From a virus (Duplodnaviria; Heunggongvirae; Uroviricota; Caudoviricetes): DNA of 27,818 bases. The DNA is taken from the IMG/VR virus record IMGVR_UViG_2740892369_000014. The stretch is one strand, 5' to 3'. Positions within the stretch are counted from its first letter, which is position 1, and each line of letters opens with the position of its first letter. Positions 21,001 to 27,000 of this stretch are shown in pieces. Made by a program: the position numbers.

Positions 21001-24000
21001 ATGAAGTTATCGACAACGACCGCGAAGACTGGAAGCGTATCTCGGCATCAATGCGCAAACAGCCTGATGCCCTTCGCTACGACCGCCAGACTATTTTTGG
21101 CCTTGTCCGTGAACGTCCGATCGACATTCACAAAGACCCTGTGGCACTGAACAAATACATTACTGAATACCTGACTACAAAGGGCGTGTTTGAAGATGAA
21201 GGAACAAATCAGAGCGCAACTGATACTCTCTCGTCGCCAGTACCAGAAACTGATGCAGTGGAAACGGCAATTCCGGACAACGAAAAAACCGAATGCAAAG
21301 TGGAAGTCGAACCATCTGTAGAGCGTGAGGGGCCGTTCTACTTCCTCTTCACCGACAAGGATGGCGAAAAATACGGTCGCGCAAACAAACTTTCTGGTCT
21401 GGATAAGGCACTGGCTGCCGGGGCTACTGAAATCACGAAAGAAGAATATCTTGCCCGCAAAAACGGAACATACACGGACTTACCGCAAAATGTGGATACC
21501 GCTGAAGATTCCGTACAACCGGAGCCGGTAAAAGTTACCGCTGACGAAGTAAACAAAATTATGCAGGCAGCCAATATCAGCCAGCCTGACGCCGATAAAT
21601 TGCTTGCTGCATCACGTGGTGAATTTGTTGAAGGGATTAGCGATCCGAATGATCCGAAATGGGTGAAGGGGATTGAAACCTGCGATTCTGTGAACCAGAA
21701 CCAGCAAGAATCGGAACAGAACGACCAGAAAACGGAACAAAACAGCCCAAATGCGCAACAAAACGAGCCAGAAACGAAACAGGAGCCGGAAAAAGCCTGC
21801 ACCGCCTGCGGTCAGACCGGCGGCGGTAGCTGCCCTGATTGTGGTGCGGTGATAAGTGACGCAACATACCAGGAAATATTCGATGAAGAGAATCAGCCTG
21901 AAGTTCAGGAAAATGATCCGGAGGAAATGGAAGGCACTGCGCATCAGCACAAGGAGAACACTGGCGGCAATCAGCATCATGCCAGCGATAGTGAAACTGG
22001 CGAGGCGTCAGATCCCTTAATTAAGGCGAACGGTCATCATAATCTCACATCCACCAGCAGAGCGGGGATTCATCTGATGATCGACCTTGAAACCATGGGA
22101 AAAAATCCTGATGCCCCGATTATCTCAATAGGTGCAATATTTTTCGATCCGCAAACCGGAGAGATGGGGCCAGAATTCAGCAAAACTATCGATCTGGAAA
22201 CTGCTGGCGGAGTCATTGATCGGGACACCATTAAGTGGTGGCTGAAACAGTCACGCGAAGCGCAATCCGCCATTCTTACCGATGAAATCCCGTTAGATGA
22301 TGCACTGCTGCAATTACGGGAATTTATCGACGAAAACTCCGGTGAATTTTTTGTTCAGGTCTGGGGTAACGGTGCAACTTTCGACAACGTGATTTTACGC
22401 CGTTCATATGAACGGCAGGGGATCCCCTGCCCGTGGCGTTACACCAATGATCGCGATGTAAGAACGATGGTTGCTCTGGGACTGGTGATGGATTTCGACG
22501 CAAGAACGACTATTCCATTCGAAGGTGAACGCCATAACGCTCTGAACGATGCACGTTACCAGGCGAAATACGTTTCAGCCATCTGGCAAAAACTGCTCCC
22601 GAGTCAGGCTGATTTTTGATGTTCAACCCATATCGCCGCCCACCAGCTATAGTGGCGGCGGTCATGCTGTAAAGGCACGTGACCACATGTACGAATTAAC
22701 TCTATCTCCAGCAGAGATTAAAGAGATCACGAAATACGAGCGATACACAAAACAGCAACACCAGTTAAGACTGCACGGCATCCCATTTGTAATCGGCCCT
22801 AAAAACGAACCCATAGTTCTCCGCAGGGATATTCCACACGGTCTGACAACGATGCCAAAAACATCTGAACTGGTTTCTGCTGAACCCGATTTTGAGGCGC
22901 TGAACAATGGGAAGACCAAGAAAAAATAAAAAAGATAATGTACTGCCACCGCGGGTTAGATCGAATGGTTACAGTTACGTGTGGAAACCCGAAGGAAGTA
23001 CAAGAAGTATAGGGCTAGGAAGAGTGCGGAAAACCAGCGTAGCTAAAGTCTGGCAAAATTATGAACTGGAAAAAGCAAAACTCCACAACATAATGACCGT
23101 AGCTAAATTATGGCACATGTTTATGGACTCCCCTGCATTTACAGAACTGGCCCCCCGAACCCAAAAAGATTATCGACAACATCAGAAGGCGTTGCTGATG
23201 GTATTCGGAAAAGTGCTTGCTGATAATGTCAAAACTGAGCAGGTAAGAATTTTCATGGATAAACGAGGGCTTGAGAGCAAGACCCAGGCAAATCATGAAC
23301 TGGCAAGCCTGAGTCGAGTATACGGGTGGGGATATGAGCGTGGGTATGTGAAGAATAACCCATGCAAAGGAGTCAGAAAATTCTCTCTTAAAGCCCGCAC
23401 TGTTTACATCACCGATGAACAGTATGCGGCGATATATGCGGAAGCAATTCCACAGTTACGCATTGCAATGGAGATTTCCTATCTCTGTGCGGCAAGACTC
23501 GGTGATGTGCTTGAGTTGAAATGGCAGGATATTATGGATAAAGGGATCTACATTGAGCAAAACAAAACCGGCACCAAACAAATCAAGGAATGGTCACCGC
23601 GATTACGTACAGCGATCCAGTTAGCCCGAAATGTATCTTCCTGTACATGCGAATATGTGATCAATACAACCAAAGGCGGGAAAGTCATAGCTAAAACGCT
23701 GAATAACTGGTGGAATCAGGCTAAACGCGCAGCCGAGCAAAAAGTTGGCGTTCCGTTCGGGTGCAATTTTCACGACATAAAAGCCAAGGGGATCTCAGAT
23801 TACGAAGGCAGCAGTCGCGACAAACAAATTTTCAGCGGGCATAAAACAGAAAATCAGGTGTTGATTTACGATCGTAAAACAAAAATCACACCAACACTGG
23901 ATTTGCCGCTCGTGGTTAGCAAGTAGACAATCCAGAAAAATTTCTGGCAAAAAGACTTGGTATACTAGCTATGAGCAACTTCCTAATACCTTGATTTTTC

Positions 24001-27000
24001 TTGGTGTTAAATTTGATTAACTTTTCAGCAATTTCACGTATTGCACTGATTTTTATTTGTTTTTCTTCGGTCTTGAAAACCGGCGACCCGAAAGGGTTCC
24101 AGAGTTCGAATCTCTGCGCTTCCGCCAAATAATCAAGGGGTTACCAAATGGTAGCCCCTTTGCTTTTCTGGCTCTTGGTATAAACTTGGTATACCAATTG
24201 GTATATTTTTATTCGGATGATCTTGGTTCTTCCGGCCACTCAATATCAGGTGCAGTTGATGTATCAACACGGTTCAGCAACACCCGATACTTCTTCCAGG
24301 CTTCCAGCAACGAGTTTTCTTCCTCCGTTGCGATCTCCAGATCTACTGAAGAAGGCAACAGAAATAGATAATTAGTGCTTTATATTCAAAAGGTTAATAG
24401 CAAATTTGGCATGCTTTTTACTGTCTAGTAAACAGCATGCCTCTATCCATAAAATCAAACAGTTGCAATCTAATTTTGGAGAACGTTTTTTCTTCTCCCT
24501 TTTAGCAAATCGCTATAAAAAACAACAAATGGTATAAAAATGAGCAATCCTAATCCATGCATGACGGACTGGAGAAAGTATTCACAAAAGTTAAAATCAA
24601 CAGTCTGTTGATTTTGAGATATAACTCTCTTTTCTAATATTGACACCTTGGCTTTGCTGGTTGTTAAAATTAGCTTGTTGATTAGTAGTATGGATAGAAC
24701 TTACTCTGTTATTTACTTCTAAAAATGGAATTTATCAATGCTTCCTACATCGCAATTACGACCGACCGGGACATTCTGCTCCTATTCCGCTGAAACATCA
24801 GCAGGCATCAAAAGCGAAATCACACCAATTCAGATAGAAGAAGCGCGGGCCAGTGGTCGTTTATATATCAAAGATTGTGATATTGAGTATCTGCCACAGT
24901 TACCAAACGAAATAACATCAGTTACAATCGAAAACTGCAACAACCTGACAATCCTTACAGGATTGCCGGTTAATACACAAAACCTCTCCGTCATTAACTG
25001 TGAAAAATTACAAATCACAGACATACCATCGACAGTAAAAAATCTACATATTGAATTAACTGATTCACCATTTATACACATCATACCTGAAGGCATCGAA
25101 TGCCTGACGGTTTGTCGCTGCCATATATCTGGAGTGCCAGAGAGCGTCCGCTACCTTGAGATAAAAGGTAGCGCCACAGACAGCATAAAAAATGTTCCAA
25201 ACGGGTTATCATCTCTCAGCATCAATAGCTATAACCCGGAGAATCAGGCCAGAATTGACAACCTGATATCACCGTCACTGCAGACGCTATCGCTGACTGG
25301 ATGTAGCAATATTATACTGCCGGAGATACTTCCGGAGAGTGTGACATCGGTAACCATTCATGCGGAGCAGAAAACCACGTGGAACATCGGTGTTGAAGGG
25401 ATGCCTGATGGGCTGGATCTTGATTTACAAAATGTACTACTCTCTCCAGATGTAGTTAAAGCAAAAAACATCACCTTTCAGGGCAACGCTCTGGATGTGG
25501 CCTTACACTTTCGCGAGGGAGACATTGTCTATGGACTATCTTCACCCAGAGAAAAACTTGTCAACAGCATTAAACTAGTTAACGACTTTTCCAAAAAAGA
25601 TATTATAACTCAGAATACGTTAACAAACGCAGTATGGGACCCCAGAACACCTCGCAAATATAAGCAAGATCCACTGATCAAAAGAGCATTAAATGAACAC
25701 GAAAGAGGGATAAAATTTAAACAACACCTAAAGAGCCACAATAATTATAATGTCACCATGGCCGACCTTTCCGTATACAATCGCGACAAATTATGGGCAA
25801 AAACAAGCAAGGCCGGCCTGGAGTTTCAGACATTAACACGCAACAAAACGGTTATTTTTTGTGCTGACGAGATTGTCAACTCACTCAAACTCATTGCTAA
25901 TAAGTCAGATGGTTATGGTCAGAGTATTACTGCCAGCGAATTACGATGGATTTATCGCAACAAAGACAACGACCAGATAATGAAAAACATAAAGTTTTAC
26001 TTGCGTGGGAAAGAGATACCAGCAGAAAAAATATTAGGCGCACCAGAGTGGAAAGACTACAAACCCAAATACTCTGGAGCCACATATAAGTATTCTTAAT
26101 GATACCTACTCACAACGAAAGAACACAAAACAATATATCGTAGTTCAAAGGACAAAGCACGATGCCATTTTCAATCAAAAACATATTTTCAAATTCAAAA
26201 GGAAGCTACCCAGAAATATCCGGACCTGTGCAGGACAAGCCAGTATCGAAGAATTGTACACTAACCTCAACAACATGCTCTATGAATGACTACACAGTAT
26301 TCAGCAGAAAATCCTGCACTTTTGACATGCGTCCACCCGGAGCAGGAGACAGAACACCACAATTAAAACTCTCAGCATCTGAACTCATATGGCTATCTAA
26401 GACAATAGATACAGAGAGGAATAACATAAAAGAATAGTAACCACTTACTAGGGAACACAAAAAGCCGCAGGCCCGAAACATCTGATTGCAAGCAACCACC
26501 TCCCGTGGAGGTGGTAAAATGGAGCCGGACTCCGGTTTTGTGAAGCTGTCGAGTTACTTCATCCCGCCAATATTTTCCCACGTCCCGTCACCACGCAGAA
26601 TTTGCAGCGGTCTTACCACGCACTGTATCTGCTTTTTATCCGCATCCAGTATCACCACCTGCGTGATTACCCTGTCCTGCTCCGGGATAATGCCATTCTC
26701 ATCGGACTCCAGAATGTCTGCCGGTCCCAGTCGCAGCTGTGCTGTAAGCGACTGCACGTGTTCACGGCCATCATGCTTTCCGCAACCACACATACGCTGC
26801 ATAAGTTTTTTTAGTATGTTATAGCGCGGCGATTTTTTTGATACCGATTTGCATTTCATTTGATACCGCTGAAAAACGCCGATACGCAACTTATTTGATA
26901 CTAAATCGGCGCTTTTCTTTTGAGTTTTAGAATGAGTTTTTAAGCGCTCATTCACTCTCTTTCAAACCAGTTTTAACTGTTTGTGGTTTTGGGTAAGGCT

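Follow-up and report, generated by a model that had tools for sequence, protein, structure and literature searches.

In the attP of phage lambda, arm sites P1 and P2 lie on one side of the core and P'1 to P'3 on the other, alongside sites for IHF and Xis, and the presence of the same motif on both arms is typical of integrase arm sites. Campbell-type tandem lysogeny always leaves an attP-like site between prophages. In tandem lambda prophages (polylysogens), the elements succeed one another in the order prophage, P arm, core, P' arm and prophage; the two arms come from different prophage copies, and the integrase gene faces the junction. At serT, prophages inserted in tandem have been published in Shiga-toxin-producing E. 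coli (STEC). Those of CC119 are named serT_1-3 (PMC10132054), and four sites with two prophages inserted in tandem have been reported (PMC8767318).

The window analysed here is a 27,818-nucleotide stretch of DNA from a viral sequence record. It contains an att site that is very probably a hybrid attP, joining two lambdoid prophages with a common integrase/att specificity for the 3' end of serT (tRNA-Ser UGA). The window matches the closed chromosome of the E. coli O26 strain 97-3250, with 100% identity over 24.8 kb. To the left of the site lies the integrase end of one lambdoid prophage (prophage 1), and to its right the distal end of another (prophage 2), which features a phage-type terminator, three repeats, a tail-fibre-assembly remnant and espK. 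In the annotated contexts of 97-3250, O103 12009 and O121 RM8352, integrase, lysis, packaging and early genes are separately present in each of the prophages beside the junction. The layout follows that of tandem lambda prophages, with three differences: the joined phages are distinct and have only the int/att module in common, the core is formed by the 3' fragment of a tRNA instead of lying between genes, and rearrangements have since affected the outer ends of the array. The locus is the same as in the CC119 tandems, which likewise consist of two or three lambdoid prophages; those tandems, however, belong to other lineages and are described at the level of prophage maps, and the att architecture was not found described there (PMC10132054). 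Coordinates of the features are collected in Table 1.

Table 1. Features of the att site and flanking genes in the window.
Feature	Coordinates	Strand	Evidence
DUF4224 excisionase-like gene, prophage 1	22687..22929	+	Pfam DUF4224 2.2e-08; PHROG excisionase phrog_1266 3.2e-23
Integrase, prophage 1; lambda-Int-like tyrosine recombinase, 339 aa, predicted N-terminal arm-binding domain	22907..23926	+	phmmer, AF2, Foldseek
Single candidate arm-type repeat (CTTGGTATAC), integrase-proximal arm, prophage 1	23956..23965	+	motif counts; variant alignment
Match to IHF consensus WATCAANNNNTTR, between arm site and core	23984..23996	-	short consensus match; kept in Evi
Core, 65 bp, attP = attB	24068..24132	+	alignments with K-12 serT, E2865 serT and Evi attP
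Second IHF consensus match, between core and three arm sites	24131..24143	+	short consensus match
serT terminator hairpin, phage-type (GGGGTTACCAAATGGTAGCCCC)	24135..24160	+	differs from K-12 host version (GGGGTTAGCTAAATGCTAACCCC)
Three direct, candidate arm-type repeats (starts 24174, 24185, 24197), integrase-distal arm, prophage 2	24174..24205	+	motif counts
Tail-fibre-assembly pseudogene remnant, prophage 2	24209..24349	-	RefSeq annotation in O103 12009, E2865 and 97-3250
espK, type III secretion effector, cargo of prophage 2	24738..26099	+	RefSeq annotation under 100% identical matches
Tail-fibre C-terminal domain gene, prophage 2	26554..26820	-	Pfam Phage_fiber_C 1.5e-35

Prophage 2 bears a Mu-like insertion, the end of which cuts the tail-fibre gene at 26821, where the window and O103 12009 diverge. 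The tail-fibre-assembly remnant overlaps a sub-threshold match to Rfam IS009.

All four members of an att set were identified in other genomes. The attB is represented by K-12, in which serT is followed by a host-type hairpin without repeats. In K-12 and in most genomes, the match to the 295-bp att query ends at about base 241, with approximately 91% identity, and the hairpin after serT is of a different type. The attP is found in the free phage Evi (LR597642.1, 31477-31769), which carries the left arm, the core, the hairpin and the three repeats in one piece, with 93.9% identity across all of them and an integrase 97% identical to that of prophage 1. The Evi site is internal to a 40-kb linear record, in the order int, attP, cargo and tail fibres; it differs from the site in the window in being a single phage's own attP, with an EspV-type fragment after the right arm instead of the tail-fibre-assembly remnant and espK. 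The resemblance to an intact attP, noticed in an initial annotation made from the sequence alone, is thus borne out by a free phage with the same contiguous layout. The attL is found in E2865, in the order hyaA, intact serT, phage hairpin, three repeats, tail-fibre-assembly remnant and espK; this espK flank follows intact serT beside hyaA in strains lacking prophage 1. The attR is found at the end of prophage 2 in O121 RM8352, where int, a one-site arm and the core are followed by the host (K-12-type) hairpin and yccA. Simple attR junctions with K-12-type DNA, and with no repeats to the right of the core, also occur in two IMG/VR loci (L047 and L064). The right-hand prophage alone consequently has a normal attL with an intact tRNA (E2865) and a normal attR at its far end (O121).

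Sites with both arms are present in 79 of 5,426 complete genomes, as scored with a balanced query in which 80% coverage is reached only when both arms are present. The integrase scan of genome contigs returned only two loci, in E. albertii and Kluyvera, neither of which gives the right arm, as their sequences end at or within the serT fragment (in E. albertii, a single base past the CCA end). In most of the 80 loci obtained from IMG/VR, prophage-boundary calling has trimmed the sequence right at the integrase stop, and only eight reach the core. Two loci encoding integrases 76-78% identical (L087 and L088) carry other genes after int, with no att site within reach.

The left arm (from the int stop at 23926 to 24067, with one TTGGTATA site) comes from prophage 1. 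The right arm (24133 to about 24221), which has the phage-type hairpin and three TTGGTATA sites, comes from the espK prophage, prophage 2. Between the arms, the 65-bp core is the serT 3' fragment left behind by integration. In the most economical history, the espK phage would have entered serT and rebuilt the tRNA with the phage copy of the 3' end, terminator and three-site arm; the rebuilt tRNA would then have served as attB for another phage with this specificity. The pristine array expected from this history (hyaA, serT, prophage 1, junction, prophage 2 and yccA) is absent in the three tandem-type genomes looked at (97-3250, O121 RM8352 and O103 12009), and in none of the three does prophage 1 end at hyaA-serT. 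In 97-3250, an IS600 has truncated it within the portal gene; its far end meets torT in O121 RM8352 and yodB in O103 12009, where the whole series of three prophages sits in the yodB-serU locus. As the far ends of prophage 1 lie away from hyaA-serT, the arrays were therefore rearranged after their formation.

This reshuffling also feeds the strongest alternative, namely that the int-attP-cargo segment was brought here, and the junction made, not by a second integration but by homologous recombination or inversion involving lambdoid prophages from different loci. Far ends of prophage 1 at torT, yodB or an IS element fit such a history, as do the two serT-type junctions within the serU locus of O103 12009 and, in O26 RM10386, a prophage-1-like integrase followed by a different partner with EspV/TccP2-type cargo. 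Recombination of this kind, however, moves an int-attP-cargo segment and cannot create the P-core-P' order, which needs tandem integration or an earlier capture of a phage attP; moreover, prophage 2 retains proper serT ends, namely the attL in E2865 and the attR at yccA in O121. We regard a recombinational origin as unlikely, albeit far from negligible. Direct tandem integration is indistinguishable here from a junction that homologous recombination between prophages has made or moved.

The exact 8-mer TTGGTATA occurs five times in the window, always within 23957-24205, compared with 0.63 copies expected from shuffling, and none of 100 shuffles gave five. Four direct copies are found, one to the left of the core (CTTGGTATA(C)) and three to its right, namely CTTGGTATA (24174-24182), CTTGGTATAC (24185-24194) and ATTGGTATA (24197-24205). 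The fifth exact copy, which is inverted and overlapping (24190-24197), arises because TATACCAATTGGTATA is palindromic. The looser 9-mer with one mismatch shows no window-wide enrichment (8 seen versus 4.1 expected, not significant); the repeat signal is the clustering of exact copies. The initial annotation had placed repeats on both sides of a tRNA-Ser core, which is correct apart from a one-base shift in the start of the right array. The three copies that it listed there are present, but their spacing is not a uniform 12 bp, the start-to-start distances being 11 and then 12 bp.

The TTGGTATA core of the left-arm repeat is kept in Evi and in five of the six other aligned variant arms, including the most diverged one (L052). 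In the remaining arm (L070), it is replaced by CCTGGTATA, and the same variant is found in the right arm of L070. Footprinting of the left arm is weak to uninformative with these variants, which are 93% identical overall. A degenerate copy, CTTGGTGTT (24000-24008), was rejected as a further site, as L052 has CTAGAGGTT instead. The three right-arm repeats are identical in the E2865 attL, the Evi attP, the second O103 junction and L052, and conservation across partners with different cargo stops between 24209 and 24221, just past the repeats.

The integrase of prophage 1 aligned with lambda Int (1z1b) over residues 1-319 in phmmer searches (E 5.6e-20), and its best Foldseek matches are full-length lambda Int proteins (335 aligned columns, E 2e-16). 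The AF2 model features three beta-strands and a helix at residues 17-60, with a pLDDT of about 85 in the N-domain. These results predict an N-terminal arm-binding domain beside the core-binding and catalytic domains. The DUF4224 gene upstream is also annotated as encoding a DUF4224 protein in O103 12009. On sequence grounds, the TTGGTATA repeats most likely represent arm-type sites to which the N-terminal domain of this lambda-like integrase would bind.

The core starts in the anticodon stem of serT and takes in the last 60 nt of the gene, ending in CCA (24068-24127), followed by AATAA up to 24132. ARAGORN detected no tRNA-Ser in the window; identity with serT starts at 24068, in agreement with the 3' tRNA fragment described earlier. 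The terminator-like hairpin noted ahead of the right repeats was also confirmed, and comprises 11 pairs and a T-rich tail. An Rfam match to MicX at the hairpin region (19 bits, E 0.58) was attributed to chance. The DNA beyond the site is AT-rich, as had been observed, with a G+C content of 33-43% versus 44-50% in the integrase region. Four matches to the IHF consensus, all of them short, occur in the window, two of which are inside the att region, one on each side of the core. An inverted repeat (I1) pairs the second of these with 23984-23999. IHF-type bends on each side of the core may bring the arm sites to the core, and crossover would probably take place in the anticodon loop.

The site shares several features with lambda attP: a heterobivalent integrase with a predicted N-terminal arm-binding domain, three adjacent sites in one arm, spaced by about one helical turn, as against fewer in the other, and a total length of approximately 295 bp. 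Short matches to the IHF consensus, as candidate sites for a DNA-bending host factor, also separate each arm from the core. As in a lambda-type attP, the core is identical to attB, a distinct arm motif is found on both sides of it, and both arms are contiguous in a free phage. In contrast to lambda, the motif is TTGGTATA and not the lambda arm sequence, the other arm has only one clear site, the core corresponds to 65 bp of tRNA identity, and the three-site arm is int-distal, not int-proximal as in lambda and in phages Chris1, BUCT708 and ST64B. Chris1, which has a 60% identical integrase and a serU-type core, carries three copies of TATACCAAG/C, spaced by 11-12 bp, on the tRNA 3' side, and motif copies in the other arm as well. 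BUCT708 features three copies of ATTCTAAG, and ST64B three copies of TTTTCTCA plus one.

The repeats might instead serve a different protein, for instance the DUF4224 excisionase or a regulator of the adjacent cargo, or be leftovers of tail-fibre-assembly sequences. Excisionase sites are likewise phased direct repeats, and the three right-hand copies overlap palindromes. Yet the same motif lies on both arms, as is typical of integrase arm sites; motif and spacing accompany the integrase family to another tRNA core and other neighbours in Chris1; and the repeats are conserved across partners with different cargo, similarity ending right after them. Such a role is rather improbable.

The initial annotation offered two origins for the site, either an unintegrated or circular phage genome or a tandem or secondary junction. 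The latter stands; the former, in which the site would be the phage's own attP, is very improbable given the 100% chromosomal match and the two different prophages involved. The free phage Evi has int, attP, cargo and tail fibres in exactly the order seen here, and any tandem array holds one full, permuted phage-genome equivalent across its junction. In 97-3250, however, the left prophage is truncated by IS600, and the right prophage has, within its tail-fibre genes, a Mu-like prophage as well as an insertion of ISCro1 (IS66 family). The two sides of the O121 junction, between yccA and torT, add up to about 97 kb, in which integrase, terminase and lysis cassette are each present twice.

A simple prophage-host boundary (attR), with repeats native to the host sequence downstream of serT, can be dismissed with near certainty. 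The same right flank does follow intact serT in many strains, but it codes for prophage genes (tail-fibre-assembly remnant, espK, tail fibres, Lom and J), and K-12 and most genomes have another hairpin without repeats after serT. The initial annotation had also argued against such a boundary, and true boundaries (the O121 attR at yccA, L047 and L064) indeed lack repeats to the right of the core. It had named a right flank shared with prophage-free strains, repeats included, as the sign of a host chromosome; the flank follows intact serT where the left prophage is absent, but is itself prophage DNA, and the real K-12 host flank has no repeats.

The hybrid attP reveals no new mechanism. A tandem arrangement at serT is expected and already documented, and the finding is real but ordinary. 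Its value is mainly in annotation: the serT fragment marks a prophage-prophage boundary here and not the end of a prophage region, and espK belongs to the neighbouring prophage, not to the owner of the adjacent integrase. The site also provides a provisional att map for a widespread enterobacterial integrase family, composed of the core at 24068-24132, TTGGTATA sites in a 1 + 3 arrangement and two IHF-like sites, which could aid the automatic calling of prophage ends and tandem arrays in STEC. A tentative possibility, which we consider doubtful, is that the rebuilt attP is functional, and that serT-type tandem arrays serve as a mixing site releasing chimeric phages. That one int-arm module has partners of the espK type in some strains and of the EspV/TccP2 type in others is consistent with this reading. 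If true, chimeras would be freed by integrase/excisionase recombination at this att site, or by packaging that runs across it from cos to cos. They would pair the module for structure and effector cargo from one prophage with the module for regulation, lysis and int from the adjacent one. Further phages would still find an intact serT, rebuilt at attL, and effector prophages would thereby accumulate and reshuffle.

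From position 3000 to its end at 27818, the window matches the chromosome of E. coli O26 strain 97-3250 (NZ_CP027599.1) with 100% identity. A lambdoid prophage in reverse reading (prophage 1) makes up the left part, and the prophage carrying the type III effector gene espK (prophage 2) lies beyond the att region on the right. Both sides of the junction are full or nearly full prophages, and each possesses an integrase, an early region, lysis genes and a terminase of its own.

Features of the window, with positions in nucleotides
Feature	Position	Description
Stx-phage-type late region	2469-6478	lacks stx; includes an AraC-type HTH gene
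TerB-family ORF	4884-5387	
Ile(CAT)/Arg/Arg tRNA trio	5485-5736	within the late region
Prophage 1, gene order, part 1		lysozyme, SASA/DUF6645 esterase, TerB-family gene, Ile/Arg/Arg tRNA trio
Prophage 1, gene order, part 2		Q-like antiterminator, exonuclease, DUF4224 excisionase-like gene, integrase
Integrase gene (int)	22907-23926	339 aa
Palindrome CCAGAAAAATTTCTGG	23932-23947	immediately 3' of int stop codon
Left repeat CTTGGTATAC	23956-23965	single copy left of tRNA fragment
IHF-consensus match, left	23984-23996	between arm site and core
Core common to both arms	24068-24132	65 bp
IHF-consensus match, right	24131-24143	between core and arm sites
Terminator-like hairpin	24135-24160	11 pairs
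Motif TTTCTGGC	24164-24172	again, just upstream of first right-arm repeat
Right repeat 1 CTTGGTATA	24174-24182	right of tRNA fragment
Right repeat 2 CTTGGTATAC	24185-24194	right of tRNA fragment
Inverted TTGGTATA copy	24190-24197	
Right repeat 3 ATTGGTATA	24197-24205	right of tRNA fragment
Right of att region		tail-fibre-assembly pseudogene remnant, espK, tail-fibre C-terminal gene
Rfam IS009 match	24255-24426	minus strand; 84 bits, E 1e-18
Mu-like prophage end	26821 onward (to 27818)	carries mom and com
mom	26948-27685	minus strand; overlapped by com

The attachment site is serT, a tRNA-Ser (UGA) gene. The initial annotation held that only a 3' tRNA fragment is present, and this is borne out: ARAGORN found no tRNA-Ser in the window, and alignment with intact serT recovers its 3' 60 nt only, a segment whose limits are 24068 in the anticodon stem and 24127 at CCA. 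Because the identity block begins in the anticodon stem, crossover is likely to occur in the anticodon loop, a step drawn from general knowledge of tRNA-targeting integrases.

In K-12, serT (attB) lies between hyaA and yccA; AATAA and then a host-type hairpin, GGGGTTAGCTAAATGCTAACCCC, come after it, without any TTGGTATA repeats. The attP site is provided by the free Escherichia phage Evi (LR597642.1, 40 kb; gene order exonuclease, excisionase-like gene, int, attP, cargo, tail fibres, Lom, J), which matches window positions 23928-24220 unbroken at 93.9% identity. Strain E2865 supplies attL: hyaA and an intact serT lead straight into the phage-type hairpin, and after it come the three repeats, then the tail-fibre-assembly remnant and espK, a stretch identical to the window from 24068 on. 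For attR, O121 RM8352 has an espK prophage that terminates in an integrase of its own and a one-repeat arm (one base different from that of the window), with the core, then the K-12-type hairpin and finally yccA beyond; two IMG/VR loci (L047 and L064) feature the same simple attR. The window therefore joins the arms of two prophages around the shared core, and its site is a hybrid attP, consisting of the integrase-side arm of one prophage and the distal arm of another. Textbook Campbell integration into an occupied site yields just such a P-core-P' site between tandem prophages. Of the origins initially proposed, the tandem junction is upheld by these arms from two prophages, while a free phage is contradicted by the 100% chromosomal identity.

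Repeats had been described on both sides of the tRNA core, and they are present: the 27.8-kb window contains five exact copies of the 8-mer TTGGTATA, all of them within 23957-24205, while shuffled sequences contain 0.63 copies on average and none of 100 shuffles reached five. The fifth, inverted copy arises because TATACCAATTGGTATA is a palindrome. The positions first reported were one base off, and the right-arm spacing is 11 and 12 bp rather than a uniform 12 bp. The motif TTTCTGGC is only partially conserved in Evi and in comparison locus L052.

Related free phages carry similar motifs in a matching layout. Citrobacter phage Chris1 (integrase 60% identical, serU-type tRNA core) carries three copies of TATACCAAG/C, the reverse complement of the window motif, spaced 11-12 bp apart on the tRNA 3' side, with further copies in the other arm. 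BUCT708 (54%) has three copies of ATTCTAAG, ST64B (50%) three copies of TTTTCTCA plus one, and locus L070 the variant CCTGGTATA in both arms. In partners with different cargo, similarity stops just past the third repeat, at 24209-24221. Two of the four IHF-consensus matches in the window fall in the att region, one on each side. Together, the repeats, the integrase and these matches fit a lambda-type attP with candidate arm sites. In the serT phages, Chris1, BUCT708 and ST64B alike, it is the tRNA 3' side that carries the three sites. Within the family, attP takes opposite orientations relative to int: the serT phages have the three-site arm on the side distal to int, and in the other three it adjoins or overlaps the int stop codon (L091, L092 and L094 versus window 23927-24221).

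The integrase aligns with lambda Int over residues 1 to 319 (E 5.6e-20); the isolated lambda N-domain matches marginally (1kjk, E 0.048). In an AlphaFold model built with 30 homologues (mean pLDDT 79), residues 17-60 form three beta-strands and a helix (pLDDT ~85), and the best structural matches are full-length lambda Int (335 aligned columns, E 2e-16). By alignment and model, the integrase therefore possesses the domain with which lambda Int reads arm sites. Lambda Int features H308-x-x-R311, whereas the integrase clade has H-x-x-K throughout (K292 here); this lysine shows no variation across 30 homologues and also occurs in the integrases of Evi, Chris1, vB_EcoM-606R7, BUCT708 and ST64B.

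In the late region of prophage 1, the TerB-family ORF and a 645-aa SASA/DUF6645 esterase come after the AraC-type HTH gene and the tRNA trio and occupy the toxin-gene position of Stx phages. The IS009 match, which is below threshold (gathering score 117), overlaps the tail-fibre-assembly remnant; this RNA family may do no more than pick up prophage sequence that is conserved. The Mu-like prophage end sits inside the espK prophage's tail-fibre C-terminal gene. Through 26820 the window is identical in sequence to O103 12009, and it diverges at 26821, beyond which TTGATAC repeats occur.

Using a 214-bp query designed so that >80% coverage requires both arms, we identified both-arm sites in 79 of 5,426 complete E. 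coli genomes. O103:H2 12009 contains a further junction of this kind, its second, in which the same left arm meets an EspV/TccP2-type partner; O26 RM10386 shows a comparable combination. In 97-3250, the far end of prophage 1 is truncated by IS600; in O121 this end adjoins torT and in O103 yodB, with the yodB-serU locus there occupied by a series of three prophages. In O103:H2 12009, these lambdoid prophages (2.283-2.436 Mb; L001, L004, L005 and L098) are connected by two serT-type hybrid attP junctions. Two of the three encode identical integrase proteins, and the last has a frameshifted serU-type integrase. Such a series implies that large rearrangements took place between prophages of the serT and serU loci. 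The arrays no longer have their original form. The simplest reading is that they were rearranged after tandem integration, and recombination between prophages may have contributed to the present junction.

Tandem prophages at serT are already described in Shiga-toxin-producing E. coli (PMC10132054, which names serT_1-3), and O121:H19 is reported to carry two prophages in tandem at four sites (PMC8767318). What is new here, and only modestly so, is confined to a provisional arm- and core-site map for this integrase family.
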